In this document: positions 3,514 through 63,500 of the stretch, piece by piece
How positions within the stretch are numbered: the first letter of the stretch is position 1
Layout: each line of letters opens with the position of its first letter
Assembly: GCA_905178155.1 (NCBI GenBank)
Contig: CAJINV010000004.1
Coordinates: forward strand, 9,940,385 to 10,004,384
Direction of reading: 5' to 3'
Source of the DNA: Amoebophrya sp. A120
Taxonomy: Eukaryota > Protista > Dinoflagellata
DNA: 64,000 nucleotides
The notes under the pieces: generated by a model
What the model saw: only the letters and a program-made list of their open reading frames with translations
What the model was told of the DNA's origin: nothing
Database searches by the model: none
Position numbers and translations under genes: made by a program

Positions 3514-5792
3514 ATGGCCGACATCGTGGAAGCGGCTGAGCGGGAGGAGGTGACGCTCAAACTGCAGATGGTGGTCCGGCTGAAGCGCGCGCGTGCCGAG
3601 ATGAAGAAGCGCAAGGAGCAGCGGGAAGCGGCGACGAAGCTGCAGTCGATGCAGCGCGGGAAGCAGGCGCGGGCGGAGGTGAATAAACTGAAGGACGACA
3701 AAAAGCTCCACGAAGACATGACGCAAGCGGCCATCAAGATCCAATCCCACCGGCGCGCGCAGCTGGCCCGGAGAAAGTCGGGGGACTACCGGACGGATGC
3801 GAAGATAGACGCGGTGTTGTTCGCTTTAAACCCCTTGAATTTGTTTGCGAAAAAGAAGGAGCTGGCGCTCGCGTACTACGGCAAGACGAAACAGGACCAG
3901 GAAAACGCCGCACTGAAGATCCAATCCATACAACGCGGAAAGCAGGCTCGCGCGGAGGTAGACGCCCTGCGCGAGGCCAAGGAGCAGGACGCGGCCGCGA
4001 GCAAGATCCAGGCGGGCTACCGGCAGAAGCAGGCGAGAGAACAGGTGGACGCGATGCGCGCGGAGAAGGAGGAGCAGGAGGGCGCGGCGACGCTGATCCA
4101 GTCCAACTGGCGGGGGCGGCAGGACCGGGAGAGCCAGCGTATCGCGGCAGAGCAAGACGCAGCCGCCACCTCAATTCAGGCGGCCTACCGTGGAAAGCAG
4201 GCGCGGAAGAATAGAGGTGTGGCAGAGGGGGGGTTGGTGGAGGACGAGGATCTGACGCTGGCCTCCGGCATGTCCGGCGCGTCCACGGAATATTGGCTGG
4301 AAATGACGGACGACGGGGGCTCGCAGATCTACAGGCCCCGCGGGGAGGGCGAGGCCGACGAGCGAAACGAGTCCATGTTTGAGGCTATCGTCGCGCGCGC
4401 CAGCGAGTACGCGGTGTTCGCTCAGAGTTTATTTCCCGACGAACACGAGCTGGGTGTGCATATTCTGTATGCCATACAAATTTACTACCGTTCACTGACA
4501 GAAGGTTATGCATATATCGCTCGGACGAGGACATGGGCTGGAAGACAGCGGTTGTCATCGAGAATCAGGCAGAAAACAACGTTTACATGAGTCTTTGTCT
4601 TGTCATCCGAGGTCAGCATTTCCAGTTGTAGATACTCATACGTCGCGTACGGTATTAAATTTCGTCTTGATACGCAGATTGAAGAGAAGATGAAAGACGC
4701 CAACCCGCTGCTAATCAAGCCGACCGAGGAGCCGGAAGTCCCCGACGAGGAGAGGGTCGCGATCGAGAACCTCCGGCGAAACAAGAAAACCCAGCGCCGG
4801 GCGAGCACGGTCACCTTTGAGCAGGACGTGAAGAAGCCTCTGCGACGGTCCGTCACTTTTGCGGAGGATACCGAGTGGGGCTTGGAGTTAGCCAAAAAGA
4901 AAGAACCAGAACCCCAACCCGTCGGGGGTTTCACCATGTACACGATGTTTTTCATCCTGCGGCTGCAATACCGGTTCCGGCAGCGACAGAAGAGGCGCAC
5001 GGAGGCAATTTTGAAGTTGCAGCGAAATTTTCGCAAACTGCTGGAGACCAGGAACGCCCGGCGCAAGTGCGGGGGCTGTTGCTGGCGAAAGACGGACAAA
5101 GGGGTCTTCAAATGCTGTTGTGGCCGGTACTACTGCGGCTCTTGCCAGACCTGCTGCCCCCACTGCTGCAAGGGCGAAGCAATACCCCCGCCGCCGCCAA
5201 AGCGGAGGCGCGGCGTGTTTTGCTGTCTGCTGCAGTGCGCGTTTTGTCCCTGCACCACGGCGGCGTCCTGTTTCAAATGGTACTGCTGCTGCTGTTGCGG
5301 AACCACGTGCTTCAAGAAGAAGCGGAATTTGGCCTACGAAGACAAACAAGACGGAGAAAAATTCTTAAACGTAGCTCTCTCCGCATCCAGGCAGAAAGAG
5401 GATCCGGAAGGTTATGCCTTGCAAAAGTGTAATTATCAATATCTCGTCCTCGTACGTCGATTTGGATTTGCATGACATTGCAAAATTGGACTTCGTTGTC
5501 CCCCGTCCAACTCAGAATTGCAATTATCAAAAATTTATATAGCACTTGCCGACATCACTTCAACTTCGAGTAGGCACGAGCGTACGATTTCGATTACGAT
5601 TATGTTTTTGCAATGCATAAAGGTGGGAGCACGCTGATTTCGCGCTCCTTCATTCCCATGCAGCAGAGCTCGCTGGGCCGGGCCATCTTGGAAAACCGAA
5701 AAAAGCAAAAGTCGCCGCTATTGATAGACCAAATTTACCACCAGCCAGCACGGGGGTTAGAACCGGAGAAACCCCTGAAAAGAAACTACTAA
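3514..5792 (+). CDS. Multi-IQ-motif (calmodulin-binding) protein with Cys-rich segment; 3 exons
   Basis: At least 6 IQxxxRGxxxR-like motifs (IQSIQRGKQARAEV, IQAAYRGKQARKN etc.), RRSVTF (RVxF-type) and CC-rich stretches. ORFs 3436-4590 and 4600-5475 are in the same frame, joined by a probable 126-nt intron (~4515-4640, CATA repeat). Removing introner 5413-5619 plus 5 nt extends the frame to TAA at 5790-5792. Confidence 0.75.
5413..5619. mobile_element. TIR introner (non-canonical intron), B-related
   Basis: TATGCCTTGCAAAA...TTTTGCAATGCATA; DR AAGGT on both sides; removal plus 5 nt gives EG|GSTLISR. Confidence 0.85.
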
Positions 5793-6889: not shown

Positions 6890-9800
6890 ATGAACATCAC
6901 CCGCCCCGATAAAAACAACATGAAGAACGCCGGGGAGGAGCTGGACCTCTTCTACCAAAATGACTTTTATGAGGAAGACACTGGCGAAAAGAACGGCGCA
7001 GATAATCCTACCCAAACGCAGCGGGACGAAGACGTCCAGGCCAACCGCTTCGAGATTGGCACCCCGGCCCCGAGTGCACGGGTAGATCGAACGTCGGACG
7101 ATGTTCAGCGCGACCACTACACGCCGGGGAGCTATTTGCAGATGTCGGCAAACAGTGTTGCCACTTCGTCGGCAGAGTACTTCAGCATTGCTTCGGCCAG
7201 GGGCGAGGGGACACAAGGTCTGCCGGTGGAGTCCTTCGATTTGAGTAGTTCGCGCACAAACAAAGCCGCGGAGGTGCAGGCACGACAGAAGGCCGCGTTT
7301 TTCCAGGCTTTTGGTGCGAAAGCGGACGATGACGACGGGGGGGAAGTGGACGAGACGGCGAAAAAATCTTTTAGCGCGAAAGGACAAGGATTAATCGTCG
7401 ACAACAATTTGTTCCAAGCAGCTGAGCCAGACATCGAGATGGGAGTCTTCACACCCACCTCGGCTTCACACAACAACCATCAAGCCGGCAACCCCAGTAC
7501 TGCTAGGCCGAGAGACCCGTGGCACGGGTGGCGGGTGGGGACGCAGGACTCGCGGTTGTTTTTCTACAAAAAGGACTTCCGGCAATACGAGATGCCCACG
7601 GTGATGGAGAGCCGCGTGTTCGGGAAGTGGAGGTTGGTGTACCCCAACGACGGCACGAAACCGTTTTACTACAACCGCAAGCTGAACCTGTCCCTGCCGA
7701 ACCACCCGGTGAACACGTTGAACGTGTTTGACGCCTGCTTCAAAGGCGATCTGTTTTACCTGCACCTGTTTCTGGACGCCTTCTGGCTGGAACTGAGCCA
7801 GGGTGTGTACGACATAGTGGACGACACAACAGGGGGTGAGGGCTCCCGCTTCGGGGCTGCAAGTAGTTCCTCCTCCAGCATCGAACTATCGGGCGCGGAC
7901 GAGACCACAACTCAAGAACAGAAAGATAGCGAACAGCCAGTTACTTCGAAGAAGGCTACGAAATCATCGAGGACGAGATCTATGCATTGAAAAAGTATCG
8001 TACTTGTATAGGTAAATGCATTACAAATTTCCCCAGCATGAGAAAAAAAAAGGTTTGTCATGCGAATTTACCTTAAAAAGAAAATTTAAATTTGTATATG
8101 CATGAATGCAATTACTACGAACGAGTACGATACTTTTGCCCAGGATAAGATCCGCCGTGGTTCAATCCCTCGCGACCATCGCGGAGGAGGCTATGGATGT
8201 GTCCGGTTCGAAATCGACAAAGTTGAAATGATTTGTCATGCATAAAATGCAAGGCATGATGTGCCTGTCTTGCCGGGATGGCAAGTGAGGCCGATTGTGA
8301 GCTTGTTTAGGGTTTGAGATAAAGCTGCTAAAGTAGCATAACAAAAGACGCCTTCTGTCCCTAAACAGCATGACAAATTGGATTCCGGTGCTCGGAAAAT
8401 TTGTCATGCGCCACGGCGGGTGGCTCGCAGCAATAAGGAAACTGGCAAGGGTAAACATCTGTCTGTGCTTGCAATGCGCTGATGGACTGTGCTCTGCCAA
8501 ATAGTGAAGTAATTTGGACTACTCCAGTTCTGGTCCCGTTGCTGTATATTGTGCGCGGGTGCTGGGTGGAAAGGTCCAACAAATATGTTGGCGTGTGTGT
8601 GTGTGTGAGGAGGAAAGTTTGGAGTGCCAGGTCCGTTGGGCCCGGGGTGGCGGCGTCTTTGGGTTGATCAAATCACCCGAAACACAATGCCACCTCGTGT
8701 TGCACAGTCTGTTTATGTCATGCGCCACTTGGAAACTGCGCTTCCGACTGGTATCGGCTTTATGCATGACAAACTATAATTTCAACTTTGACGATTTCAA
8801 TCCTGACACTCCCATAGAGGCCGCGGCGGTGGAAGAGGTGCGGAAGCGAAAAATGGACAAGTTGCAGCGACTCGCGGAGAAGTTGCAGATCGGGGCCGCC
8901 GCGCCGGTCGGACCCTTTCCAGCGGTCGGCGGGGGGAAGCGCCCGGTCCTGTTTTTCGAAGGCGAGCACGCCATGACGCCCGGTGGAAATAACAACGGCA
9001 GCGACGTGTCCACACCCTCGGGGCGAACGCCGAAGTCGCCACTGTACCGCGGCGACCGGCTGATCACGTCGGGGTTTAGCTTGACGCAGCAGGACTCGAA
9101 GAATTCGAGTGTGGCTGGAGGGCCAACAGCTTCCGTTCTTTCTGGATATCGAATGCAAAAATGTCTGGGTCTGGAAGAATGCAAGATTTGTCATGCATAT
9201 TTCTCATGACCGATGATGCCTAGAATGCTTGGCCTAGCATCGCAGACTTTTAGAGGGCTTCCTGATGCATCTTCCGCATGAGAAATACCCTGTCCGTGTA
9301 GCAAATACTGTACCCCTCTTGCTGGTCATGCAATACAAATTTTTTTAGAGTCCAAAAGCAGCATGATAAGTCGCAATCTTCCAGACCCAGACACTTTTGC
9401 AGTTGATACTGGAGCAGGGGGTGCAAGAACTCCACTGGTGCCAGGCAGTCCTACGAGGGCCGCGGGCGCTGCGGCAACCGTTGGCGAAAAACCGGGCACC
9501 AACATGACAACGCCCGCACCTGAAATGAAACCCAAGATGACTGTGGACAAGGCCGCTGCGATCATGAAAAAAGCGGCTACTCTGGTACCGAAATTGTCCT
9601 TGACGCCACCGGGCAAGGACGTGAAGAACGCCCAACCGGCTTCTGGGGGGAAGATGATGATGCAGCACTTGCCGCAAGAAGGCCTCGCCAAAGCGAAACA
9701 GAGCGGGTTGGCGACCGCCACAGCGTTGCTGGCAAAAATCAAGCAGGGGCAGGCCTCGTCCTCTTCACCCGCAGGAGCTGCTTCGCCGAAGTCACTACTG

Positions 9801-12800
9801 CAAACAGGCCCTGTAGTACTGGGCGTGCCGTCGTTACGTGGAACAACACTTGCGTCGTCGCCTTTGGTGGGTGGGAGCAGCCGTGGAGGTGCAGCTGCAG
9901 GAGTCTCAAACTTTTCTCCTGTCGCACAACTACAGCGGCCACGAGTCGTCGAACCAAAGGAAATGTCCGTGTCAGTACAGACGCCACGACTGGCGCGAGG
10001 TGCCGTCAACGAGGAAGAGGACTCCGAATCCAACGCTTCCAGCCGCGAGGGTGCTGTCGTGGCAGGAGCAAGCCTCGGGGCGGGAAAGAACGTGGTCGCA
10101 CCTTCTTCTCGAGTCCTTGCGCCGGAGAGTAAAACGAGCGCCGTGGACGAAGAGGTGGAATTGTTCGTGGGCGCAAAGTATGCATTGCAAATATGTCTGG
10201 GTCTGGAAGGTTGCAAGTTGTGATGCTGTGTTTCCACACTAAAAAGATTTGTACTGCATGACCAGCAAGAGGATTCCAGTTTGTGCTACGTGGGGGGGCA
10301 TTTGTCATGCGGAATAGGCATCAGGAAGCATTCTAAAAATCTGTGATGCTAGGTTCCGCATTCCAGACCTCATGGGTCATGGGAAACCTGCATTACAACC
10401 TTGCACTCTTCCAGACCCAGACACTTTTGCAGTTGATACAAAGGAAATCCTGGTCACGGAAAGTCCCTCCCCCTCAGAATCTCCGTCGCCCCCGCTGACC
10501 GCGCGCTTCCCCGTATCATGAGGAAAAATGCCCCCTCCCCATATCGAAACAAAGTTTCTGATGCTGGATTTCCATACACAGATCAGATTTGTCTTGCAGT
10601 AGAGGAATGCACGCATATGTCAAGCCTCAGCCGAGAGGTTTGACGTAGGCGCCTAGCATGATAAACGTGTATGCTCTGAGCCAAACAGCATTACAAACCG
10701 CCTGAAAAATGCGGAACGCTTTCTGGACTTGCCTTCTTGCAAGACAGACAGGATTTGAGGTCACAAATGCGCATCACAAATTTTCAGACGGATACGCTTT
10801 CGATATGGGGAGGGGGGATTTTTCACTTCGATACCCCGCCTCGACGCCTCCGCTGACGTCTCGCGTACAGCCGGGAGCTTCGACATCGCCCCCACTGACC
10901 GCGAGAATGTTGGTACCGGCCTCGTCCTATGAAGATGAACTGCAAAAGTACCGTACTCCTACTCGTATAAATGCATTACAAATTTTTTCAGCATGAGAAA
11001 TAAAATTTCTAATGCGGATTTACCTTACAACAAAGATTTGTAATGCAAGACTTGCATTTCCATTTATACGAATACGTATAGATACGATACTTTTGCACAG
11101 GATACGTCCACGCCGCCCCTGACCGCCAGGATTGATCCGGACAAGCCACTGCAGCTGCAGACGGTGGTGGATGGAGTGCCCGCGAAATTGCATGTAGTTT
11201 CCGAGGGAGGAGGTCCTCGTGGCGGAACTAAAGGACGAGAAAGTGCTGGAATAAAGTCGTCTCCTGTGCAGCCTGCAAAAAAACCTACAAACTCTTGGAC
11301 ACCACAGAAAAAGTCCTCGACGCAACAAGAAACTATTCCGGCAACTACTAATACACCGACTGCCGCGAAGCAAGTGCAACAAGAGGGACAACTATCCGGC
11401 GCTTCCTCGCGAAAAAAGTCCTCGACCGCGACCCCTGGCGGAAGTACCATTGGTGGAAAGGCCCCGGCGCGAGAACTTCTAGTGGATGAACAAAAAGCGG
11501 CAGCTGTGAGCATGAGCAGCAGTGCCAAGAAAAATCAAACCCCTTCTGCTCCTGCAGCTAATGCTAGTGCAGCCGCTAAAGCACCTGCACCACCAAAAGC
11601 AAAAGCTGCTGGAGGTGGTCCTGATCCTGGTTCAGGAGCTGCCCAGGACGAGAAACCTCCGTCCCCGCAGCGTCTTATCCAGGCCGTTCCTCTGATCTCG
11701 CCAGCAACGGAACAGCTGCCCCCAAGTGGGGAACTGCAAGAAGGGCAATTACAAACGACGTACCCAAGTAGAACCAACGAGCCCTCCGCATCCACCGAGG
11801 AAGCGGCGAACGTGCGCGACGCGGTGCAGACTTATCCTTATCCTTGGAATGAGGGGAAGGATTTGCCGCCAGAGACCGCCTCACCGGTGCGCGGAAAAAT
11901 TCACGCGAAAGTCGAAAAGCGGAAACACCAGAGGAGGCTGTCCGCCCTGCGGCTCACGCAGATTGAGATAAGCAATCGCACACATCATCGATCATCCGGG
12001 TCTGGAACATTTTTGCAGCAGAGGGGCGGGGTGGTCATCGCCATGCCTTATTTCCTCAGAGGCCATTTCCATGCCATGCGTCATTGCCATGCCACAGAGT
12101 TTTGTGAGAGATTGTGTGAAGTTGAAGATCCAGAGCTAGCATGACTCATTCTCGAAACCACTTGAATTGAAATCGAGACTCGGAACTACGATATGTGCGC
12201 TGCATATGAGAATTACTTGAGCTATTCGGACCTGGATGTCGCGGCCACGCCGTCAGCGAGCAGTGTGGTGCAACAAGGGACACGACCAGCACCGGTGGTG
12301 CCAGAGTCCCCGGTTTTCAGCGAGCATTCCGGTGCGGGCACCCGCACCAGCCAGCAAAGCTCAGTTGCGGCGAGCTTCCACGAACTGCATGGTTTTAACA
12401 ACAGCAGCATGACCACGTCAGGGCGAAGCAATAAATTGGCTTCATCACAGACGAGCACGGGAACAAATAAGAGACAGCATGACTTGGAATCGGTCCTGGC
12501 AAAGCGGACGCTTCTGTACGATGATAAGGAGAACGTCATTTTCGAGAAAACCTCGCGTAAAACCCTCGTGCACTACGCCTGCATGGCAACCCAGGAGCGA
12601 ATCGTCCAGTACCTCGTGGAGTGCCACTCGTTCGGCATCCAAACGGTCGACGCCATGGGCTTCGCCCCGCTGCACATCGTGGTGCGAAACGGCGCACTGT
12701 CCCTGGCACGGTACCTCCTGCACGCGCGCGCGAACGTGAATGACAAAACGCGAAACGAGTTTGCGGACACCGCCCTGCACATGGTTTCCAGCCTGGCCAT

Positions 12801-14049
12801 ATGCAGTGCAAATATGTCTGGGTCTGGAAGCTTTCAACTTGTGATGCTATGCTTCGACTCCAAAAAAATCTGTATTGCATGACCAGCCAGAGGAGTTCAG
12901 TTTGTGCTACGCAGAGAGGGCATTTCTCATGCGGGTCAGGGATCAAGTTCAAGAAGGCCTCAGAAAACCTTTGATGCTAGAGCATACATCACAGATATGA
13001 TGGACTATGCAAAATGTGCATGACAAACTTGGCTTCTGCCAGACCCAGACATGTTTGCAATCCATAGGCCAACCCCTTTTCCATCACGTCCTTGCTGCTG
13101 GAGTACCAGGCCAACTGCTTCGAAACCAACAGCGACCACTGCACGCCCTTAGATGTGTATGAGAGTGCACAACTCCCCCTCCCCCTCATTTCAAGGGCAT
13201 AAACAGCAACACAAGTCCTGGCATCAACGCAGCTTTTGCATGACAAATTTTCGACCGATTCTACTGCTGTTTCGGCTTCTGGAATTTGCCATGCAAGCAG
13301 TGCCAAAGGGAAAAGGGTGGATTAGCATTTGCTGTTTTGCATGACAAATGAGGGGGAGGGGGAGTTGTGCACTGTCATAATGTGGTGCAGCGTTCCAAGA
13401 ACCACCCGGCGCGAGACGCCTTGCTCTTGATTCTGCAACGGGAGTCGGAGCGGCAACAGCACGCGGAGAAGCAGCGGCAGGCGAGTGGTGCGGAGGGCGG
13501 CTCTATGACAGTGCACAACCCCCCCGCCCCGTGATTTGTATAGCATGAACGGCAATACAAGCGCCAGCGAGAATGCAGGTTTTGCATGGCGAATTTGCAC
13601 AGGATTGTCGTGCTATTATTTGGGCTGCCAGAACTTGTCATGCAAACAGTGCCAAGATAGAGGCACAGCCTGGATTGGGCATTTCGCATGACAAATGAGG
13701 CGGAGGGGGAGTAGTGCACATTCATAGGCTCTTCCAGTGGCGAAGAGGTGGACATCACGATGTCGGAGCGGTCGGCAGAAAAACTACTGGGCCACGACAC
13801 GATCATATCGCAGGAAAAAAGTGGTACAGTGCAGGCAAAGCAAGACAGACAAGCTCTCTCATGCCGGATATGCATAGGAGCCTCGTTTCATAGGTGTTTT
13901 GCCGTAGGATTTCTGCATTACAAGTTTGCTCTCTCATGCAGAGAAATTTGTGTTGCTGAATTGACAACAAATGTGTAACTGTAACTTTTTTCGTGGGATA
14001 AATCACTCGGAGAATCTGGGCGAGCCTGGCGGCGTTCATTGGGAGGTAG
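6890..14049 (+). CDS. WW-domain and ankyrin-repeat protein, about 1382 aa, 12 exons separated by 11 introners
   Basis: Two WW-like motifs (WRVG..LFFY..P; WRLV...PFYYN..P) and ankyrin repeats (TLVHYAC, APLHIVV, TALHMVSSLA|NPFSITSLLLEYQAN..CTPLDV). Exons 6890-7980, 8153-8191, 8822-9146, 9414-10178, 10444-10513, 10839-10927, 11110-11968, 12212-12799, 13072-13157, 13385-13503, 13732-13805, 14006-14049 sum to 4149 nt, with one open frame ending TAG. Confidence 0.85.
7981..8147. mobile_element. TIR introner, family B
   Basis: TATGCATTGAAAAAGTATCGTAC...GTACGATACTTTTGCCCAGGATA; DR AGATC; frame restored. Confidence 0.9.
8192..8816. mobile_element. TIR introner, family D, carrying a nested insertion
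   Basis: About 38-bp imperfect TIR TATGGATGTGTCCGGTTCGAAATCGACAAAGTTGAAAT; DR GAGGC; sibling at 52392-52698. Confidence 0.9.
8415..8715. mobile_element. 301-bp insertion nested in an introner, flanked by a 13-bp duplication
   Basis: TGTCATGCGCCAC at 8402-8414 and 8716-8728; the motif is single-copy and the insert absent in sibling 52392-52698; internal (GT)n run. Confidence 0.7.
9147..9408. mobile_element. TIR introner, family A (inverted orientation)
   Basis: TATCGAATGCAAAAATGTCTGGGTCTGGAAG...CTTCCAGACCCAGACACTTTTGCAGTTGATA; DR CTGGA; 267-nt removal joins ORFs 8514 and 9363. Confidence 0.95.
10179..10438. mobile_element. TIR introner, family A
   Basis: Same TGTCTGGGTCTGGAAG TIR; DR CAAAG. 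Confidence 0.95.
10514..10833. mobile_element. TIR introner, singleton TIR type
   Basis: TATCATGAGGAAAAATGCCCCCTCCCCATATCGAAA...TTTCGATATGGGGAGGGGGGATTTTTCACTTCGATA; DR CCCCG. Confidence 0.9.
10928..11104. mobile_element. TIR introner, family B
   Basis: TATGAAGATGAACTGCAAAAGTACCGTAC...GATACTTTTGCACAGGATA; DR CGTCC. Confidence 0.9.
11969..12206. mobile_element. Degenerate TIR introner
   Basis: TAAGCAATCGCACACATC...GATATGTGCGCTGCATA; DR TGAGA; 243-nt removal joins ORFs 11164 and 12193. Confidence 0.8.
12800..13066. mobile_element. TIR introner, family A
   Basis: Family A TIR; DR GGCCA; removal rebuilds an ankyrin repeat. Confidence 0.95.
13158..13379. mobile_element. TIR introner, family C
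   Basis: TATGAGAGTGCACAACTCCCCCTCCCCCTCATT...AATGAGGGGGAGGGGGAGTTGTGCACTGTCATA; DR ATGTG. Confidence 0.95.
13504..13726. mobile_element. TIR introner, family C
   Basis: TATGACAGTGCACAA...GTAGTGCACATTCATA; DR GGCTC. Confidence 0.9.
13806..14000. mobile_element. TIR introner, A-tract type
   Basis: TATCGCAGGAAAAAAGT...ACTTTTTTCGTGGGATA; DR GATCA/AATCA. Confidence 0.8.
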
Positions 14050-51157: not shown

Positions 51158-54100
51158 ATGTCGTGGCGTGCGGAGTCGCAATTTGTCACTCAGCAGCAGG
51201 TATCAAATGCAAAAATGTCTGGGTCTGGAAGGTTGGAACTTGTGATGCAAACTCTGGAACACACAAAAACTTGTGTTGCATGAGCGCCAAAAGCTGTCCA
51301 TTTCTTGGCACGCAAGTAGGAAGCTTCTCATGCGGGACAGGCATCACGAGGCGTGCTCAAAACCTGTGATGCTCTTGCATGCATCAGACGCCATTTGCGT
51401 GATCCGAAATATGCATGACAAGTCTCAGAATCTTCCAGACCCAGACATTTTTACATTTGATAGCAGGAGAATGAGAAAAATTTCATGAAAATCGCAAAGA
51501 AGATCCGCGACATTGGGAAATTGGAACTGCATATCAAAAGAAAAAAGTTCGTCACGATCACTCATGGGCATTTTTGCAATACAAAATTGTCTGTCATGCG
51601 TAAAAATGCATCACAGCCACACTTCATAAGGGATTTCTCTAGTGTTTCTGTTCTGCAATACAAGGAGAAGTTGTGATGCTAAAAAAATTTGTAATGCAAA
51701 GCCTGCAACTAAGTGACTGTGACAAACTTTTTTCTCTCAATACTGCAAGCGCATGTCGAGGCAAACCAGCAACAGAAATTGCAGCAGAAGGCAGAGTTGT
51801 TGAACGAAATCGCCGAAGTGAAAGTCGATCGGAGTTTTTGGAGCAAATTCGACGACGTATTGGTTTTTTCGTGTTTGATATGCATATGATGACGATGTAT
51901 TGATGCACCATTATTTGTAGTTTTTGCTTTTGGCATGATCAAGATCACGTCTGGCTGTCGCTTAGTCTCAATCCAACCTTTAAATCCGTTAAAATTAAAT
52001 AAAAACAGATCTGGGCCCTCCTTCCACCAAAAGCGCAGCAGCGGATCGAGTTTCGCAAGGCACAGGCCGACGCCGAGGAGAGAAGGAAACAAGAGGAGAA
52101 AGAAGAACGAAAACAGCGCAGCCTGAACCACGTTGAAGAAGATGTCAGGAGAGCACCAGTACAGTTCATAATTTTGGTTCTTGCATATCAACATGATGAG
52201 GAGAACACATCACTAGTACTTGCATCAACATTTCAACAGAATGTTGACATGTCGCACCTCTGGTCGTGCTAGTTCGACTTTGACCCCAACATGCTATAAT
52301 CTTCATACACAATTACTTGACCAACTACAGGAACTCAACTTCGTGGTTCGTCACGAGCGGCCGGTGACCGACATGTGCTACGACGAGCAGATATGGAAGC
52401 GTCAGGTTTGAAATCGTCAAAGTCGAAATAGTTTGCCATGCATAGAATGCAGCCCTCAAAGTGCCTGTCGTGCAGAGTAGGCAAGTAAGGCAGGTTGTAA
52501 GCCTCTTGAGGGGTAGAAACTGAGCTGCTAAAGTAGCATGACAAAAGGCGTCTTTCTTACCCAAACAGCATGACAAACTGGATTCCGGCTCTACCTAAAT
52601 TTGTCATGCGCCACTTAGAAACTGGTTCACAACTTTCATCCATTTTGTGCATTACAAGTTTTTTCAACTTTGTCGATTTCAATCCTGACACATCCATAGC
52701 AAACCGGCTTTCTCTATTCCAGTTCCAAGGACAAGGCGGTCGTCCGGTGGGACGTGCATATCCAAGAAAAAAACGTTGTTAGTGTAAGTTTGTGATGCGG
52801 AACATGCAAGATGATTGCCTCTGTCATGCTTGGCATGCGTTGTAGGGTCCACTAGAGGGCGTTTTCACGTGCTATCTGCGCATGACAGGTTTTTGCTGTC
52901 ATTCCAGAGAGATTTGTAATGTTGTTCCTCCAAAAAACTTACACCTACAATTTTTTTTTCTTGGATAGTGCAGGGGCACAAGATAGTAGCGCACACGACC
53001 CTGTGTGGGCACGAGGGCGCGGTCTGGTGCGTCGACGTGCACCGGGGGGAGGTGGTAACCGGTGGCGCGGACGGGCTCTTGATCTTCTGGTCCGCAGACC
53101 CAAATGCCGGCCGGGGAAAGAAGGAGAAGGTACCTACATACTTCGTGAAAAGTAGATTTTTCGTAACATATTACGCGGTGCGAAAGCGCTTGCTTACCTT
53201 GACGTACGCAAACACTTTTTGAATTTGCCATGTAGATGTACAAGAAATATGTTATTATACACGGTTTTACATCAAGCGACAACCAACCTCAAATGAAAAC
53301 AGATCCAGCAGCCGCACAAGGTCCAGAACTATGGCGGGATTATCAAAGGGCTCCGGGTGCATGACGCGGGGATTTGCCTTTACACCGACAAATTCGGCCC
53401 GAAAAACCCGGCGCACATCGCCTGCCTTTCCCGTGACGACCCCACGCAGGTGATCTGGAAGACCACGGACATTATCAAATGCAAATATGTCTGGGTCTTG
53501 AACGTCACAACTTGTGATGCTGTCTGTGGATTCTAAAAAAATTTGTATTGCATGACCAGCAAGAGGGGTCGGGTTTGTCCTACGTCGAGAGGGCATTTCT
53601 CATGCGGTAGAGGTATCACAAAGCCCCCTAAAAATCTGTGATGCTACGGCATGCATCACAGAAATCATGGCTCATGGAAAATATGCATGACAAATCGAGA
53701 AATCTTGCACCAGACCCAGACACTTTTGCATTTGATAGACATCCACTGCAAGATTAACCAGCTGATCTGGGGTCCGGTGGGGCAGCCAAAAATCTTTACC
53801 GCGCACGACGACGGTAATTTGAACATCTGGGCCGGAGCGGGCGACGGCGAGGGCGGCGGAAAGTTGATGAAGAGCGTGACGACGCTGCATGACAAGGCGA
53901 TCATATCGATGAACACGCACAAGAACTTCATCTTAACAGCCTCCAGCGACATGACGGTGAAGGCAATAAATTCCGGATCCAAGGACCTCCCGGTTTGCTT
54001 TCACGCCAAGGCGAATAGGCCACTCAGAGCAGTAGCGGCATGGGACTTCCCAGAGGAGAAATGTGAAAAAATTTTTCAAAATGCTTATGCATTGCAAAAG

Positions 54101-54894
54101 TGCCGCTCTTATCGTAAGCGGACTATGAGTAGAAATCGCAATACAAACTTTCCCAAAAAGAGTAAGAGATGAAGAAATGCATATTTTCCATGCTTTTTTC
54201 CTTCAGATCATCGATCTGTTATGCATGAAAAGCACACGAATCCAAAACCACCAGGTTTCGCCTTCGTCTACGGGGGTGGCCGGGATCCGAAGGACGTGAC
54301 AACTTCCTACCTTCTACCGGATGAGTTCGACTTTTACCAGTCCTACCTCGGCGAGTCGCAGTCCACCATTATGACCAAAAACGGGTCGGCCGGGCCGCTG
54401 CACCGGCTGATTTGGGTGATATGGATTGCAAAAATGTCTGGGTCTGGAAGATTGCAACTTGTAATGCTGTCTTTGGATTCCACCAAAAAAATCTGTATTG
54501 CATGACCAGCAACAGGACTCCAGTTTGTGTTACGCGGACGAGAGGGCATTTCTCATGCGGAATAGGCATTAGGAAGCCCTCTAAAAATCTGTGTTGCTAG
54601 ATCATGAATTAGAGGCATCAATCATCATACAAAATATGCATGACAAGTTTGCATTCTTTCAGACCCAGAAATTCAAATTTTTGCATTTGATAGGTGAACC
54701 CGCTGAACAAGGTTTTTGCGGCTAGCGAAGATGGTGAAGTGAAGATGTGGGATATCCACAGAAAAAAACCCATCCACATCCAATTTGTCGTGCAAAACAC
54801 GTATCAAATCATGTGTTTGTCATGCAAAAACTGGATGTGGATGGGTTTTTTTCTGTGGATATGGGACGCAGAAACGCTACACCAGATGAGATGA
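51158..54894 (+). CDS. EIF3I: eIF3 subunit i (TIF34)-like WD40 protein with an N-terminal coiled-coil extension
   Basis: After splicing: RHERPVTDMCYDEQTGFLYSSSKDK, TLCGHEGAVWCVDV..VVTGGADG, FTAHDDG, ILTASSDMT, RPLRAVA, YGGGRDPKDVTTS, GPLHRL, ASEDGEVKMWD, matching the eIF3i motif order. Seven introners plus GT-AG introns 51857-52008, 52144-52330, 53130-53302, 54063-54254. Confidence 0.75.
51201..51462. mobile_element. TIR introner, family A
   Basis: Family A TIR; DR GCAGG. Confidence 0.95.
51532..51742. mobile_element. TIR introner, A-tract type
   Basis: TATCAAAAGAAAAAAGTTCGTCAC...GTGACAAACTTTTTTCTCTCAATA; DR CTGCA. Confidence 0.9.
52392..52698. mobile_element. TIR introner, family D
   Basis: TATGGAAGCGTCAGGTTTGAAATCGTCAAAGT...ACTTTGTCGATTTCAATCCTGACACATCCATA; DR GCAGA/GCAAA. 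Confidence 0.9.
52759..52967. mobile_element. TIR introner, A-tract type
   Basis: TATCCAAGAAAAAAA...TTTTTTTCTTGGATA; DR GTGCA. Confidence 0.9.
53473..53737. mobile_element. TIR introner, family A
   Basis: Family A TIR; DR GACAT. Confidence 0.95.
54420..54692. mobile_element. TIR introner, family A
   Basis: Family A TIR; DR GGTGA. Confidence 0.95.
54753..54861. mobile_element. TIR introner, family E (minimal, 109 bp)
   Basis: About 30-bp perfect TIR TATCCACAGAAAAAAACCCATCCACATCCA; DR TGGGA. Confidence 0.95.
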
Positions 54895-56043
54895 TAGGAG
54901 AACCCGAGATGAATCTGATGTTCTTCCAAGTTCTGTGCCGCGCCGATGTAGTTCTTGCCGACGGGCGATTGGGTGGGTTGCTATGCAGTTTTTACGTACT
55001 CAAGCAGCCTGCTGACCTTCATTTTCCGCCTTCTGGAGTTTAGTGAATGACGGTTCATACTGCGCATTCGTGTGGTAACAGGGACGAGGCTATGAAGATG
55101 CAAGAAGACAAACGCTGCTGACATAAGCAGGATGGCAATGGATCCAATATCGGCCAACTACATCGAGTAGACTTGTTCCTTTTCAAAACTTTTTCAAGAT
55201 ACATGACAGCGCCCGTCATGTATTTCAAAGGCTTTTCTAAGTTGAGCCGATTCATCATCGGCTTCAAGTAGTTTGGTTTCCATCATCGACTACTGATATG
55301 GAAGAAGTTGCACACATGCAATCGCGCCGCGCGCCCGCGCGTCACCTTTTTCATCAAGGACAAGTTTTTATACGCAGAACAAAAATCGACACTTCTTTAT
55401 CAACTGTTCAACATTCCACTTCATCTGAAAAGGAGAAACCTCCGCCTCCGTGGGAGACCGCGAGGCAGGGAACTTTTACACAGATTAAAATGACAACAGA
55501 AATCTTCGATGAAAGCAAGCAAGCGGGGAAGCAAACGCATAGTAAAATCGTGGCGTTGATACGTCACAAAAGCCAAAGCACTCAAATCCAAATGCGCAGA
55601 ATGAAGAAGATTCTGCATTTCGTTCGCGAAGATGCGGGGGCACTTGTGTTGCGCCGTTGTTCTCTCTGGAAAGAAGATTAAGTTTTTTTTTCAGTGTTCC
55701 GCCCGCGGATGAAGATCAAGATGCCACTTGTTGTCCCAGACCGCAGAAGAGTTGCGACCGGACACAGGCGACGCGCCTCGCACCTGGAAGGGTGGGGCCG
55801 CGCAAGCAAGAGGCACCCGCCCCGCCCTTCGCCGGCTGTGAGGTGATGGCCTTGCCCAACGTAGCGCGCCGCCCGGAATAATGAACGGAACGCGCGGCGC
55901 CATAGCGCCTGCCGCGATTTCTCCCCCGGGCCGGGCGGAGCGGCGGCCCCCCTGGCGTCGCCGCCGCGCGCTCTGTGCTGCTTGTCGCGCGCTTGCGCCC
56001 GTAGGGGGGCCGAACAAGGGGGGGCGCCTGGTCTTTGGCAGGA

Positions 56044-56098
56044 CCGGTCTCGCGTCGCCTTGCCGCCGGCGGCCGGCGGCAAGGCGACGCCAGACCGG
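56044..56098. repeat. Near-perfect 55-bp GC-rich palindrome
   Basis: CCGGTCT-C-GCGTCGCCTTGCCGCCGGC-G-GCCGGCGGCAAGGCGACGC-C-AGACCGG: 27-bp arms, one mismatch, 1-nt centre. Confidence 0.9.
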
Positions 56099-58079
56099 AA
56101 GGCCGGCGGCCTTCCCCCGGGCGCGCGCCACCGCCCGGCGCGAGGGAGGTGGGGGGTGGGGGAAGGCAGGGGGCCCGCAATTATGCAGGCCGGCGCCCGG
56201 GGCTTTGAGGAAGGTAGAAAGGGGGAAAGTATCGGCCCGGTGTTTTGTTCGCGCAGTATTGCGCAAGCACAAGCGCAACAGGGCCACCGGGCGCGCCCCC
56301 AAGGACGTCAGCAAGCGTCGCCCTGCCTCCAGGCATTGGCCCCCCCCCCGTGGGTGGCCCATGTTGGTCTCGCCGAGAAACGCGAACGGCCAGCCCCCGG
56401 GAGAAGGCAAAGGCGTTCGCCGCGCTCCTGTTCAAGCTAGGCGGGGCCTTGGGTGTTTGTTCGGTGTTTTGGTGGGTGGCTCTCTGTAACAGGCAGGGGC
56501 GCATTTGGGCTCCGCCCGGGACCGGGGCCCCGGGCTCTTCAAGAGCCTTGGTCTTGGTCTTGTGGGCAGACCACCACCGGCCCGAGGAGCCCACTGGGCA
56601 GGGGGGCAGCCGAGGTCGGGCATGTTGCCCGACTTCCACAGGGCCGCCAACGACGAGAACAAGGGCAGCAAGCCACCGCCCGGCGCGAGGGGACGGAGGC
56701 AGCAAGTGGCAGGCGGGGGACGGCAGGAGGCCCGCAGCCATGGAAGTGGCTGCCTGAATGTGTGTGGCCGCTCGGCTTGCCGGGTGCCTTCCCTACCTGC
56801 AAGCAGGAAGGCTAGCGGGCCCAGGTCGCCCGCGTAGGATTTCCGCCAAGATCAGGGGGCGGGGGCTCCCTTTCAGCAAGGAACCGCCGCGCGGCGGCAG
56901 TTCGCTTCGGGCGGCCCAGCCGCTGTGGCCCGAGACATTCTTTGAGGGGGTGCCGCATGTGGTCGCCAGGGATCCATCAGCGGCGCAAGGTCCCGCGTGG
57001 TTTTCGTCTGGGGCTTCGGTGTCAGCGGCAATGTTCTGGGCAGCAACTCGGTCACGCGCACGGACTCCCGGCGAGCATCTCGGGCGGGCATCTCGGTGAT
57101 GGCAGCCGGGCTCCCTTGTTCCGATGTGGACTTGGCTCAGCGGCACGACCGCACGACAGTGACAGAATTTCTGGCGAAGTGCCTGAAGGAAGCGCGCGAA
57201 GAGTGCCCGGCGTGGAAGAGCTCACACCATTACACCAAGGCCGGCAAAGCGGAGCGGGCGGGGCAGGGAGGGGGGCGCGGGCGTATCTGCGACGCGTACA
57301 CTGCGCGCGCCCGTGTCCGTCGCCGGTCCGGAAAGCCATGGACGCACCCCCTCGAGCGGCGGCCCTGGTGAAAGTGCCAAATCGGCGCGCCGGGGGTGGG
57401 CTTACACGCATGGAGAGGCCCTCTGTGCGCCCGGTCCGGTGTGGGCCTGTGGATTGTGTGGCCGCGGCGCGCGTGTGTTTGTTTGCCCGCCGGCCTCCTC
57501 TGTTGCATGCATGCGCTTGCGCCCTTTCGGGCCGCGGGACCGCCGGGCGCCTGCGTGGCTGGGTGTGTGCGCCGGCGCGAAAAGGGGCACTCAGACGAAA
57601 CGGAGCCAAGAAAAAAACCGAAGCGCCCCCAGTCCTATTGCCCGTGGCCGCCTTCCTTGCCAGCCAACCATAGTCGGTTGCTCTGTGTTGGGAAAATTGG
57701 GCACGCAGCTGCTGTTGTTGGGGATGTTGAGTTCGTTTTTTTCTTTTTCCCAAGTACAAACAGAGAAACAATGTTTGAACCTGCGACCAATGGATCATAA
57801 TCTGAAGAGCGAGAAATTCTACGTGGACTACGCCCGATGTCGGGAATGCAAAATAGAGAGCTCGAATCAAAAGAAAGTGTTAGTTTGTGTTGACAATACA
57901 AATGATGAAGCACATCACACCGCCATAATTGGTGCTGGTGCTGTCGTTTTTGGTCTTAATTTTTTTCAACAACACCTCATCCGTGTTTGCAGGCACAGGC
58001 ACGACACAGGAATGATTTCGGGACATCTGTATATTTGTTCGAAACAAGTTGTGTAGTTGGAAGGAGTCCAAAAACAACG

Positions 58080-59540: not shown

Positions 59541-60596
59541 TAGTTTTTCTTCTGATGAAAATCATGGAGGCAGCTACTCAAAAAAGAAAAAGCCTGACGA
59601 GCTGCTTTTTTTGTGACGAGCGAAGATGAACCTGCTTCTCGAGTTTGTGATTGTGTAGAATTCTATAGCTGTGTACAGTTTGCATCTGTTGATGAAAATG
59701 TTTAGCACATATTTGATACCAGCTGGTCGTGTTTCGAGTTGTTGAATATTGCTATGTTTCTGTCAATTTTTACGAATTGCTATACACACATAGTTTCTTC
59801 CAGCTACTTACTAAGTTTCAGTTTGCATGATAAAAAGCGAAAACACTTTGAAACCGAGATGGCAAACGAATTTGGTTGTGCTGTTTCAGGAAAAAAATAC
59901 GGAATACAACAAGGAGCGAAAGATTGACTCTTCTTGCTCTTGGGGGTACGTACGATTGATTTCAGCGACTACTAGAAAAATGCGACAAATAAAAAAAGCG
60001 AAACCGCAACCACCTATACTGTGTTTTAATCAAAAGTGAAAAAGTTCTCATTTGGTGAGGATGACGTGAATCCGAAATCACGAGCTACTCCTTCGTCCGC
60101 CTGGGGATAGTTGCAGTTTTCAGAGTGTGTTGCGCAAAAAAAGTAATTCTCATTCTCCAAAGCTCACAGACAGGGTCGTGCGTCGTAGACGTTATTTCCG
60201 ATATTGATCATAGTCCATAACTCAAGAAAAAGCGAAGAAAAACGCCCTCGAATATACTTATTAATTTTCTTTTCGTCAGACAGAGTACTAACACTAAGGG
60301 TCACGGTGGTATTAAGCCTGCTGACATATCAGGCATAGAGACCTCAAGGAGATCATTCTGCGTAGCTAGTACAACCGGATGAACCACCTAAACGACCTTG
60401 ACGTCCAAGCAAAGCCAAGAAGACTCGTCAAAAATGATTCTAGTTCTCAACAAAGATGTCCGCGGCCAACTAGAAACTCATGCTCAATTATCCTCTGTAC
60501 CTGTAGCGACCGTAACTACAACGACGTTTTTTTCATCGGTAGGTTTCAACTTGTTTCTCAGAACCGAAAAACAGCATAAAAAACGACCCTTAAAAC

Positions 60597-63500
60597 ATGA
60601 GCGGCCACATCGTACGCGCACAGCATTCGAAGGAGTCCTCGCACAGCGCCCGTGAGGAGCGCCGCCGGCAGCTGGAGTTGGTGCGGCAGGCGAAGGTATC
60701 AAATGTAAAAATGTCTGGGTCTGGAAGATTGCCAGGTTTGTCATGCACGTTTTGCATGACTCCTGATGTCTGTGATGCATGCCCTAGCATCACAGATTTT
60801 GTGAGGGCCTCCTGATGCCTATACCGCATGACAAATGCTCTTTCCGTGTAGCAAAACTTGGACTCTCTTTGCTGCTCATGCAATACAGATTTTTTTACAA
60901 TCCTAAATCAGCATGACAAGTTGGATTCTTCCAGACCCAGACACTTTTACAGTTGATACAAGGGCATTTTGGAAGCCAGGGAGAACGAATTGATGTTATC
61001 TTCGTCTGAAGACAGTTCCGTATCCTGTGCAAAAGTCTCGTACTCGTAGTAATCCTAATCGCAGTCATGCATTACAAATTTCTTGCTCAAGTGAAATCCG
61101 CATTACAAATTTTATTTCTCATGCCGAGGAAATTTGTCATGCGATTTATACTAGTACGATGCTTTTGCATTTCATATTCCGGTGGAAACAACAAAAATAT
61201 TAAAACAAATAGCAGCAGCAGGAACAGGAACAAAGAGCCGCCCACATCCAAATCCAAGTCCCCGAAAGCACGCCCAGCCGCGCCGCCCGACACCTGGGGC
61301 CCGGTGCGCAGTCGCGTTTCGGGCAGGATGGGGAGCAAGGAGCGGGTCGGTCTGCGGGATCGTGATCGAGGACCACGTGATGCAGGTCCGCCAACTGCTT
61401 TGACGTCGCGGGGTGCAGCTGCCGGAAGACGGCGATCGCGCTCGCGGTCCAGGGGCGACCGGAATGTTGACACGAGACGGAGTAGAAACTACCTTTCGAC
61501 GCGGCCTGCAGAGGTTCCTAGAAGAGGAGGTCCAGCACGTGGTCCACCTGAGCGGACGACCAGGACCAGCCGCGAGCGGGGGAGAAATAAAGACTCCGGT
61601 CGCGGAGCTGCTCCACCGCCGGCGAAGAATGCCCCGCGGAGGTCGAGGTCCCGGTCGAAGAGAGGGCGGGATGGCCAAAATGGCCAAGATGACCGTCGTG
61701 ATGAACCACGACGCGCAGCAGGTGGAACGGAAAAAAGAGACCCGGCCAAAAAGAAAGACCTACCGGAGATAGAAAGACCGGGTACAACAACGACCGTCGA
61801 CGGACGGAGGAAGGGAGGGAGAAAGAGGAGCTCCAGTTCCGAGCAACGGGCAGTGAATAAAGTTAAAGACTCCCGGAAGCAGGACGAGAATAAAGTTGTG
61901 AGGAACCGTGGTAAAGGTGAACAAGAGCCACCGCTCTCTCCTCCTCGCCGACCAGATACAACAACACGAGCTGGCGACCACCTATCCTTTGCAAAAGTAC
62001 CGTACAACTCGTATAAATGCAAGTCTTGCATTACAAATATTTTTCTTAAAGTAAATCAGCATGACAAATTTCATTTCTACTCATGCTGAGAAAATTTGAA
62101 TTTCTAATGCTTTTCAACGAGTACGATACTTTTGCAGTTCATACCACCGGGACGAGCAGCGCAAAACCCAGAAGGAAGCTACCCGACGACAAGTCGTGTC
62201 GTCTCGCGATCGGGCACAACAAACTCGAGGCAAACAAGACAGCAAGCGGGATATAATTACTGGGCGAAATAAGCCTGATGGTGTGCAACGGGACGAACGC
62301 GCCAGGACGGAAAAAGATAGAGGCAAGGAGAAGGGCACAATCGAAAGAGCAAGTGGGCGAGTAGATCACGGAGCAGAAGATGTTGTCAGGCGTGCTGCCC
62401 GGTCCCGTAGTCCCATTTCCCGTCGTGATGTTGCAAAAGGGAAAGACACCAGAGCATCTCAGCGTCGACGTGCAGATGATGAAAACAACAACAACAAGGC
62501 TCGTGTTGACAACAAGACAGCCACGACTGAAAATGAAAATCGAGATCCACCGCAGCGAAATAGAAGAAGCCCAGTGAAACCATCACCAGAGGAGGAACAA
62601 CTTGACAACAAGAAAAACTATGAATTGCAAAAGTATCGTACTCGTATACATGCATTACAAATTTCCTCAGCATGAGAAATAAAATTTGTAAATGCTGATT
62701 TACTCTAAGAAAAAGATTTGTGATGCATGACTGCAATTACTACGAGTACGATACTTTTGCGCAGGATAAAAACAAAACCACTACGACCGGGAGCCGTCGC
62801 ATGGACGACAAGATCGCTGCGAAAATTGCGATATGCATTGCAAAAGTATCGTACTCGTAGTTGTAATTGCAGTCATGCATCATGACAAATCTGGTTCCTT
62901 AGCTCATTCAGAATAGCAAATTCCATTTTGCCTTCTGGCAAAATTTGTAATGCTATCTCTACTAGTACGATAGTTTTGCAATGCAAATGCGACCAAGAAG
63001 CAGCAAGAGAGCAGCTCTTCCTCAGATGAATCGTCGTCGTCGGACTCGGAGGATAATTCCTCATATCCACAGAAAAAAAACCATCCACATCAAATTTGTC
63101 ATGCCAAACACGCATAAAGTCCACTATTTGTCATGCAAAAAATGGATGGGGGTGCGATGGATGTTTTTTCGTGGATTCCCTAAGCTCCTCCTCTCCAAGC
63201 GCACGGAGGACCAAGCAGAAGAAAGAACCAGCTAGCGTAGACGAGCAGAACGGGAACAAGAAGGATGCCAAGATGAGGGCCGCTGACGGGTCAGCGAGGA
63301 ACAACAACAGTAGAAACAACAGGGAACAACGGCAAGTTGCTGGTGCAAAGACGACTGTCCGGCGCGAGAATTTATCCGAAAATAAGCCAAGACCGAGAAA
63401 AGACGAAACGCGAGAGGACGAAAACAATGCTCTTTACAGCCGAGGACGTCGTGGTCGACGTTCCAGCAGCCGTGACCGCAAGAACACAAGAAATAAAGTT

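Follow-up and report, generated by a model that had tools for sequence, protein, structure and literature searches.

Short inverted-repeat elements in exons of Amoebophrya sp. A120 are removed from transcripts at a single fixed register

We analyzed a 64,000-nt stretch of the Amoebophrya sp. A120 genome (contig CAJINV010000004.1, positions 9,940,385 to 10,004,384, forward strand), referred to as the window. Its host genes are interrupted within their exons by 37 elements bounded by TAT and ATA, located between 5413 and 63177 and measuring 109-625 bp. This set was curated by hand from scans and sequence reading, without the list behind the initial annotation, and arrives at the same figures, including 24 perfect and 13 decayed flanking repeats and four elements with a single terminal mismatch. 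Two to three further elements are present: one confirmed (33749-33917), one likely (26973-27209) and one ambiguous (4468-4672). The eight host genes first claimed are reduced to seven, because 51158-54900 holds a single gene that is colinear with ortholog P0009. We refer to this gene as eIF3i-like because its Pfam identity is weak (E 0.0012, one exon).

The features are listed below in window coordinates with their strand. Here, n/5 gives the matches in the 5-bp direct repeat, L is the element length, and L+5 denotes removal of the element plus 5 nt; registers and contig classes are described further on.

5413-5619 (+): element in IQ-motif gene; 5/5; frame and repeat only
7981-8147 (+): element of the 9-member family, WW/ankyrin gene; 5/5
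8192-8816 (+): 625-bp element, no long ORF; 5/5
9147-9408 (+): element of the 8-member family, reverse orientation; 5/5; RNA-like contig piece begins at 9409
10179-10438 (+): element; 5/5; RNA-like contig shorter by 772 nt, equal to this and the next two elements plus 5 nt each
10514-10833 (+): element; 5/5; part of the 772-nt sum
10928-11104 (+): element; 5/5; part of the 772-nt sum
11969-12206 (+): element with TAA start; 5/5; RNA-like join 11963/12207, equal to L+5; retained in DNA-like contig
12800-13066 (+): element in ankyrin region; 5/5; RNA-like piece stops at 12794
13158-13379 (+): element; 5/5; repeat only
13504-13726 (+): element; 5/5; repeat only
13806-14000 (+): element; 4/5; ORF longer if retained
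17243-22507 (+): SLC26/STAS host gene, containing 8 elements besides 4 GT-AG introns; model and deposited P0002 are identical
17661-18007 (+): element in SLC26 gene; 2/5; registers 2-4 permitted
18647-18796 (+): element; 4/5; registers 4-5 permitted; RNA-like piece begins at 18801; P0002
19492-19639 (+): element; 4/5; registers 0-4 permitted; RNA-like piece stops at 19486
19724-19991 (+): element; 2/5; registers 0, 1 and 4 permitted; P0002
20297-20447 (+): element with ATT end; 5/5
20523-20679 (+): element; 3/5; registers 4-5; P0002
20762-20907 (+): element; 4/5; registers 3-5; P0002
21483-21823 (+): element; 2/5; registers 4-5; P0002
25007-25273 (+): element in MORN gene; 4/5; P0007 shorter by 272 nt, equal to L+5
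25353-25511 (+): element retained in deposited P0007 model; 2/5; also in DNA-like contig
26676-26916 (+): element in small membrane-protein gene; 5/5; RNA-like piece stops at 26670
26973-27209 (+): likely extra element whose inverted repeat is gapped; 2/5; frame kept with L+5; an alternative GT-AG reading fits too
27759-28009 (+): element; 5/5; loose end of RNA-like contig matches 28016-28045, i.e. L+5
33749-33917 (+): extra element; 0/5; P0008 shorter by 174 nt, equal to L+5; register 4 alone yields the deposited residue
51201-51462 (+): element in eIF3i-like WD40 gene, GT-AG by chance; 5/5; ortholog P0009, loosely aligned region
51532-51742 (+): element; 5/5; ortholog colinearity
52392-52698 (+): element; 4/5; ortholog colinearity
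52759-52967 (+): element; 5/5; ortholog colinearity
53473-53737 (+): element; 5/5; ortholog colinearity
54420-54692 (+): element; 5/5; ortholog colinearity
54753-54861 (+): 109-bp near-perfect palindromic element; 5/5; ortholog colinearity
60697-60958 (+): element in RS-rich gene, GT-AG by chance; 4/5; frame
61021-61176 (+): element; 5/5; frame
61983-62143 (+): element; 5/5; frame
62619-62768 (+): element; 5/5; frame
62832-62987 (+): element with AAA end; 5/5; frame
63064-63177 (+): element with ATT end; 3/5; frame
4468-4672 (+): candidate old element; GT-AG readings fit equally

Using a scan that disregards the direct repeat (TAT..ATA pairs with at least 18 of 25 inverted-repeat matches), we found 39 pairs, 25 of which are flanked by a 5-bp repeat with four or more matches. 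In five shuffled controls the scan gave 0, 0, 2, 0 and 3 pairs, none with such a repeat. Flank identity across the 37 elements is 0.876 at 5 bp, compared with 0.23-0.30 at 1-4 and 6-10 bp, and the target duplication is 5 bp only. The loci of a second assembly share no genes with the window; there, 294 scan hits yielded 246 scorable and 130 oriented elements, and 124 after six with a repeat of 0-1/5, mostly inner TAT..ATA mispairings, were dropped. Arm positions 1-3 are T, A and T in 536, 540 and 543 of 546 arms, and positions 11-13 are A in 479, 505 and 508. Five families (9, 8, 3, 2 and 2 members) were distinguished among 38 elements; the multi-copy families occur in both orientations and share little beyond their termini and an internal, strand-symmetric 8-bp motif, GCAT(G/T/C)ACA. 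Coding capacity is absent, the longest stop-free stretch being 109 codons in the 625-bp element. This anatomy, with inverted termini, a 5-bp target duplication of free sequence, families inserted both ways and no long ORF, agrees with the MITE-like character initially proposed, and the elements presumably spread as non-autonomous DNA transposons. No autonomous partner was found in 162 loci, where long pairs proved to be mispairings and no long element had a good duplication. Viral contigs gave no match. In keeping with repeated families, a single run has some 30,000 contigs that match 20 kb.

Exon-encoded proteins from three queries are 100% identical to deposited A120 proteins, and because of these matches we equate the elements with the introners that Farhat et al. 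2021 (PMC7789003) described. Transposon-like introns are thus already described for this marine parasite, and the phenomenon itself is not new. The initial annotation cited that paper correctly, and the correspondence is closer than it stated, since the paper deals with the A120 genome itself and reports both direct repeats of 5 bp and repeats that start with TAT. It describes repeats that begin with TAT, followed by about seven bases and then AAA, direct repeats of 3-5 nt with one 5-bp example, RNA-seq support and a likeness to MITEs; for the introns it reports no clear dinucleotide signature, variable splice sites and undefined borders. In contrast, our elements have a duplication of strictly 5 bp, a fixed register and a +2T/+3A signature, and the repeat is dispensable. 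The A120 and A25 families of Gozashti et al. 2025 (PMC12130899) are likewise mostly DNA elements with terminal inverted repeats, many of which "co-opt both" splice sites, whereas automated duplication calls for A120 range there from 2 to 5 bp, with one manual call of 5, and a single register is absent among the 22 of 58 A120 and 28 of 60 A25 rows listed. What we add is that the cut lies at one fixed position even at decayed flanking repeats, which are what pin it. The literature searched holds no published register for these introns; the sequence logos and Figures S19-S25 in Farhat et al., as well as Roy et al. 2023, may bear on the point.

Contig results were drawn from the 16 of 20,551 matching pieces listed, and runs were labeled RNA-like by a guess that the loss of GT-AG introns supports. 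A joint table was set aside, since the 15 of its 1484 rows listed all reflected repeat fragments. RNA-like contigs lack the element plus 5 nt at at least 13 sites. Contigs without GT-AG introns also lack the element plus 5 nt, while flat-depth, DNA-like contigs retain both. The DNA-like contigs, which come from one run, continue unbroken through at least seven of the 37 elements, and at least six of these seven are missing from RNA-like contigs. Exact L+5 removal was established at 14 of the 37 elements, from deposited proteins or the lengths of the RNA-like contigs listed, and at one extra element; ortholog colinearity supports it at seven more, and at 16, including 25353, it is read from frame and repeat alone. 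Transcripts underlie the deposited proteins and may be the same RNA as the contigs, in which minor isoforms are invisible. Raw RNA runs X8 and X9 contain 124 and 2 reads matching the window, all of them element fragments that leave the host genes uncovered. The initial statement that removal always restores the frame holds modulo 3, but frame cannot separate +5 from +2 or +8, and the ORF is longer with L+5 than with L+4 and L+6 at only 30 of the 37 elements. Retention of element 25353 in the deposited P0007 model counts against general removal.

The position of the cut was described by registers, where in register 4 the intron comprises the last repeat base, TAT...ATA and the first four repeat bases. 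All eight informative sites, located in two plus-strand genes, fit register 4, the only register common to all of them. Deposited P0002 shows no mismatches to register 4, compared with 7, 7, 6, 4 and 2 to registers 0, 1, 2, 3 and 5. The RNA-like pieces beginning at 18801 and stopping at 19486, recorded before the protein search, bracket register 4, and the P0008 residue at the 0/5 repeat (33749-33917), given by register 4 alone, was predicted beforehand. The joint chance of such agreement is 0.0006, or 0.004 for any register. The 5′ cut falls one base before TAT and the 3′ cut four bases after ATA, in a single fixed register. Because register 4 holds at a 0/5 repeat, the direct repeat is not the signal. 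Of the earlier proposal that the target duplication is canceled at the RNA level, removal at that level is supported, but it operates by a fixed 1+4 geometry and not by repeat matching. Since 1+4 equals the duplication length, any exon site would be restored scar-free and either orientation would work. This geometry accounts for a transposon being able to occupy about 13% of the window (8609 nt) inside exons at no coding cost.

As the initial annotation had noted, most elements offer no GT-AG pair: when all six registers are considered for an intron of length L+5, GT-AG is available in 4/37 and GC-AG in 3/37. At register 4 GT-AG is found in two of the 37, so the GT/GC donor and AG acceptor of U2-type introns do not characterize the set. 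The elements do have T at +2 and A at +3 in 37/37 cases in the window, and U at +2 is invariant across these and 128/128 oriented elements. Among GT-AG introns, +3A occurs in 9/10 in the window and in 70/83 predicted in the second assembly by a model that carried a +3A bonus. One gene finder, which recovered 5/12 known introns, was discarded; another recovered 12/12 but was partly trained on these introns. Table S4 of Farhat et al. 2021 (PMC7789003) gives T at +2 in 18/18 predominant non-canonical types, the A25 types all being TT, and the A25 repeat starts with TTA. Terminal mutations, in transcript sense, number 0 at +2 and 5 at the partner position -5 (p 0.03), and stand at 1/10 for +2/+3/-7; the 14 terminal-mismatch rows comprise two inner false pairs and six of unsure strand, inclusion of the unsure rows giving 3 versus 13 (p 0.011). 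No preference for G was seen at +1 (37/124, p 0.63). AG at -2/-1 occurs in 16/124 elements against a 6.7% background, a weak excess given 3/37 in the window and a similar rise of CT at repeat positions 4-5 (14/124). Decayed repeats among the 124 elements showed no drift toward G or AG.

Given these properties, we favor, with moderate confidence, a relaxed U2-type spliceosome as the most likely agent of fixed-register removal, one that is U1-less, relaxed at +1 and AG, and measures its 3′ cut from the element end. The 5′ cut would be set by the sequence N-U-A, a version of the canonical GUA donor in which +1 is free. For the 3′ cut, AG would be unnecessary; its position would be measured from the 3′ terminus of the element, which pairing of the inverted repeat would place beside the donor. 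The reported loss of U1 snRNA may be part of this relaxation; in strain Kv both U1 and GT-AG introns are present, and U1 was not detected in A25 and A120. A branch adenosine at -7 common to canonical introns was suggested by 9/10 window introns and rejected by the 83 predicted GT-AG introns (-7A in 30/83, no peak). Because the elements' -7A is not common to GT-AG introns, no branch site was identified.

The same register could instead arise if a nuclease read the paired or protein-bound termini and cut 1 and 4 nt outside them, an RtcB-type ligase then joining the exons, a route put forward for Euglena nonconventional introns and demonstrated, in imprecise form, for SOS splicing; we consider this rather unlikely. 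It would suit the almost unconstrained +1, -2 and -1 positions and the predicted structures, with a median in-register pair probability of 0.83 at the termini and a median z of -6.7 for elements against -0.4 for GT-AG introns, as well as an inverted-repeat identity of 83% where the direct repeat has decayed and 81.5% where it is intact. The cut register is, however, the one of six that places TA at +2/+3, as in canonical donors; the 5′ overhang would be 0 nt in A25 and 1 nt in A120, apparently tied to TA and not to the stem; mutations are one-sided across terminal pairs; and a wobble signal is absent. Selection on the RNA stem gave a null result (G.U versus A.C in the inverted repeat, 87 versus 97).

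Euglena nonconventional introns (PMC12501133), whose cut positions were solved by excluding slidable introns, offer a parallel for nuclease-ligase processing in their inverted terminal triplets and fixed, unequal cut distances, longer on the 3′ side. They differ in having CAG/CTG with 3- and 5-nt spacers, where A120 has TAT/ATA with 1+4; our elements read N1-TAT...ATA-N4 and not N3-CAG...CTG-N5, with a fixed spacing from the cuts and predicted pairing of the ends without wobble selection. That report describes no canonical-donor match, and circular products. Fixed spacers thus also describe introns thought to be non-spliceosomal, which counts against the spliceosome reading. In SOS splicing by AKAP17A-CAAP1-RTCB (PMC12779559), paired inverted repeats likewise trigger removal of DNA transposons from mRNA without GU-AG, but imprecisely, at many sites and with indels, whereas in A120 exact L+5 is seen in contigs and deposited proteins as part of routine gene expression.

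An improbable reading is that the register is variable or dictated by local cryptic signals, its apparent uniformity being an artefact of few sites and gene-model building. According to a figure legend in Farhat et al. (PMC7789003), splice-site position varies with respect to the hairpin, donors and acceptors are scattered in the family tables of Gozashti et al. 2025 (PMC12130899), and our register test covers two genes, with minor isoforms hidden in contigs; yet such scatter is expected, because perfect repeats let aligners slide, and the eight sites intersect at 4 alone, two of them as predicted in advance. Self-splicing or another element-encoded route, to which the strong predicted structure would be suited, is very improbable given elements as short as 109 nt, the little that families share and the lack of an Rfam match in the window. 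Least probable is IES-like DNA excision at some life stage, with transcripts copying rearranged genes: symmetric termini and the strand-symmetric motif would suit a DNA-binding enzyme and the intact-DNA evidence comes from one DNA-like run, but that run retains elements missing from GT-AG-intron-free RNA-like contigs, and a 4+1 split in transcript sense would be unlike a dyad-symmetric DNA cut.

Returning to the relaxed spliceosome, introners of Micromonas, Aureococcus and Polarella are also MITE-derived introns that exploit target duplications, and the non-canonical introns of Fritillaria indicate that a spliceosome is able to adapt (reviewed in PMC11282704); these systems use canonical or few fixed dinucleotides, whereas only +2T/+3A are fixed here. 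We tentatively suggest that the U1-less machine of A120 and A25 may need only an N-U-A donor and a ruler from the far terminus, without G+1/AG. TAT with 1+4 and TTA with a predicted 0+5 could then be two independent transposon solutions, and the internal GCAT(G/T/C)ACA a mark for one protein binding all families. A spliceosome, if responsible, would be operating in the absence of the G+1/AG pair by which the second step is normally fixed.

The fixed register replaces "no clear signature" with a rule, N-T-A...A-T-A-N4, which may be used to re-annotate tens of thousands of introns and tells where lariat or circle ends should lie. The rule also yields point mutations by which spliceosome and nuclease-ligase models can be told apart, making an unsolved mechanism testable. 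One exception was observed at +3, where the confidently oriented element L041 carries T.

We scanned the window for TAT...ATA pairs whose arms match as inverted repeats at 18 or more of 25 positions, leaving the flanking direct repeat out of the selection. The scan returned 39 pairs, 25 of which carry a flanking 5-bp repeat matching at four or five positions; the same scan of five shuffled windows gave 0–3 pairs each and none with such a repeat. A list that we curated by hand gave the figures of the initial annotation: 37 inverted-repeat introns within exons (hereafter elements), 109–625 bp in length, 24 with perfect and 13 with decayed repeats, and four with terminal mismatches. Two or three further elements also lie in the window. 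The repeat is strictly 5 bp long (identity 0.876 versus 0.23–0.30 at other lengths across the 37 elements). Most elements indeed lack a GT-AG pair: when the element plus 5 nt (L+5) is removed, GT-AG is possible in 4/37 and GC-AG in 3/37 at any register, that is, any cut position (0–5) in the repeat. Seven host genes were counted rather than the eight originally annotated, namely IQ-motif, WW/ankyrin, SLC26, MORN, small membrane protein, eIF3i-like WD40 and RS-rich genes; the IQ, ankyrin, SLC26, MORN and WD40 labels come from domain searches, the others from reading the translations.

Two older candidate elements, at 26973–27209 and 4468–4672, have gapped inverted repeats; their L+5 is in frame, and GT-AG readings fit too. 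Positions 28100–51100 (~23 kb) hold one element only, and two adjacent long genes there (~29.3–34.2 and 35.0–40.2 kb) look alike and may be paralogs, the former being split near 31010 by a frameshift or short intron. GC-rich stretches at 40700–41800, 45000–46000 and 55700–57600 are unlike the exons and introns around them and possibly represent another repeat class.

For three genes, the exon-encoded sequence is 100% identical to proteins deposited under the name Amoebophrya sp. A120. As the initial annotation stated, introners (transposon-like introns) have been described in Amoebophrya: Farhat et al. 2021 (PMC7789003) report A120 introners whose inverted repeat begins with TAT, with direct repeats of 3–5 nt and a 5-bp example, and count 1954 families holding 29,850 repeated introns. 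Both the system and the elements themselves are therefore already known. The same text gives no clear dinucleotide signature, leaves the border positions unknown and reports U1 snRNA as undetected.

At decayed repeats, whose two copies are not identical, the register can be read, as the transcript reveals the cut position. Contigs of run X1, taken as RNA by guess, skip GT-AG introns as well as elements. At repeat position 4, the X1 piece beginning at 18801 retains the base of the upstream copy; at position 5, that ending at 19486 retains the base of the downstream copy. Register 4, one base before TAT and four after ATA, was read from these contigs before any protein search, with joints placed leftmost by the alignment tool and checked on perfect repeats and the GT-AG introns at 17447 and 22045. 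Against the deposited SLC26 protein, register 4 gives 0 mismatches and each other uniform register 2–7. At 33749–33917, where the repeat matches at 0/5 positions, each of the six registers predicts a peptide of its own; the deposited protein carries the register-4 peptide, and the 174 nt missing equal L+5. The donor at this site is GT by chance, and the acceptor is TT. Register 4 fits eight sites (probability of joint agreement by chance 0.0006, or 0.004 if any register is allowed), on evidence from two genes on one strand and from deposited models whose source transcripts may coincide with the RNA of X1. From these eight sites it follows that the borders are fixed: the intron starts with the final base of the upstream repeat copy, continues through TAT...ATA and ends after four bases of the downstream copy, and the direct repeat itself is dispensable for removal.

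Contig evidence was drawn from the 16 pieces listed out of 20,551; the 15 joints listed out of 1484 all stemmed from repeat fragments. The raw RNA runs X8 and X9 yielded 124 and 2 reads, all from element fragments, and left the genes uncovered. Among the listed pieces, one X1 contig joins 11963 to 12207, a loss of exactly L+5, and a loose end at 27759 matches 28016–28045, giving L+5 again. X1 gaps of 772, 815 and 1591 nt correspond to three elements, two elements with two GT-AG introns, and six elements with two GT-AG introns, respectively, at 5 nt extra per element, sums in which compensating 3-nt shifts could be masked. Counting single joins and gap sums, at least 13 elements are absent from X1 contigs. 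The SLC26 protein confirms L+5 singly at its eight elements, and the deposited MORN protein (P0007) adds a fourteenth. Removal as L+5 is thus borne out at 14 elements across contigs and deposited proteins; against the word 'always' in the initial annotation, 25353–25511 is retained in P0007. Retention there yields 384 residues and removal 350; since the deposition pipeline selects the longest ORF, this case does not count as a refutation.

In a second assembly, the terminus of one family matched 163 loci, 162 of them on file (L001–L162). Paired by inverted repeat alone, 111/144 elements there carry a perfect 5-bp duplication, and L+5 is frame-consistent for 114/130 oriented elements of all families (other classes modulo 3: 7–9). 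After seven L+5 removals, the eIF3i-like model is colinear with its ortholog P0009, the first junction falling in a loosely aligned stretch. This gene (51158–54900) has an additional N-terminal charged region of ~120 residues, common to P0009.

At register 4 the donor reads N-T-A in every element, and this is the sole register of six that aligns with the genome's GTA donors, present in 9/10 GT-AG introns of the window and in 70/83 predicted in the second assembly by a model that favoured them. In the available part of Table S4 of PMC7789003, T occupies +2 in 18/18 predominant types (TT in strain A25; GT, CT, AT and TT in A120), which together account for no more than 31% and 20% of introns and may be biased by aligner placement. 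According to the same paper, A25 repeats begin with TTA; in A25, TA would thus again fall at +2/+3, this time without an overhang. Read in the direction of the transcript, terminal mutations fall on one side (0 at +2 versus 5 at the partner −5), and 1/10 falls at +2, +3 or −7. The only element with an altered −7 base, L003 2872–3123, has a target duplication offering a canonical GT-AG at L+5, its strand call being unsure. AG at −2/−1 shows a slight excess (16/124 versus 6.7%) but stands in only 3/37 elements of the window, and the same 124 elements have an equal excess of an unrelated dinucleotide. We found no G preference at +1 in oriented elements, no drift toward G or AG in decayed repeats, no −7A in the 83 predicted canonical introns, and no G·U excess in the predicted stem. 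Because the inverted repeat is equally kept in old and young elements (83 versus 81.5% identity), the termini, whether as sequence or as a stem, still matter once an element has inserted. A lone intact element end at 54086 lies inside the GT-AG intron 54063–54254, its partner end decayed, which suggests that element termini erode where splicing does not need them.

A relaxed U2-type spliceosome would remove the elements, a reading to which we give slightly better than even chances. In spliceosome structures, G+1 and G−1 pair together in the second step, and a joint loss of both requirements is therefore coherent. GT-AG donors hold little information past GTA (G at +5 in 16/83 second-assembly predictions), and acceptors in the window and L001–L162 are A/C-rich without a pyrimidine tract; these weak signals are consistent with U1 being absent or altered. 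The accessible part of a report on strain Kv describes U1 as present, together with GT-AG introns (10.1101/2024.09.05.611473). Removal by a Euglena- or SOS-like nuclease–ligase is possible but less likely: Euglena introns show fixed spacers of 3 and 5 nt (PMC12501133), circular products are reported for them (PMC12621601), and SOS splicing is triggered by repeats but is imprecise (PMC12779559). Excision at the DNA level is unlikely, as contigs of X5, a DNA-like run (type not on record) with flat depth across intergenic DNA, pass intact through at least 7/37 elements, six of which are gone from X1. Since the assembly may itself derive from X5 and rare forms drop out of contigs, such excision is graded as unlikely and no lower. 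In the literature text searched and the supplement rows of Farhat et al. and Gozashti et al., we found no earlier report of the fixed register, N-T-A signature, dispensable repeat or shared internal motif. Their value lies not in a new system but in making the open splicing mechanism directly testable.

Of 38 elements, some group into five multi-copy families, with members in either orientation; for the eight-member family, orientation with respect to transcription is skewed 33 to 14 across the window and L001–L162 (p 0.008). An internal motif, GCAT(G/T/C)ACA, appears in 35/38 elements, with 86 strand-neutral copies in 8.6 kb (42 forward, 44 reverse). Outside introns its density is 0.11 per kb, a value exceeded ~90-fold in elements, and GT-AG introns have 1.4 copies per kb. 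It is also carried by 24/83 predicted GT-AG introns in L001–L162, and some canonical introns may therefore be old elements. A strand-neutral motif common to unrelated families suggests a single DNA-binding protein, which we infer is likely a transposase; a search of the second-assembly loci found none. Gozashti et al. 2025 (PMC12130899) describe, for A120, a family in which inverted repeats accompany integrase-like ORFs, a lead toward an enzyme making 5-bp duplications.
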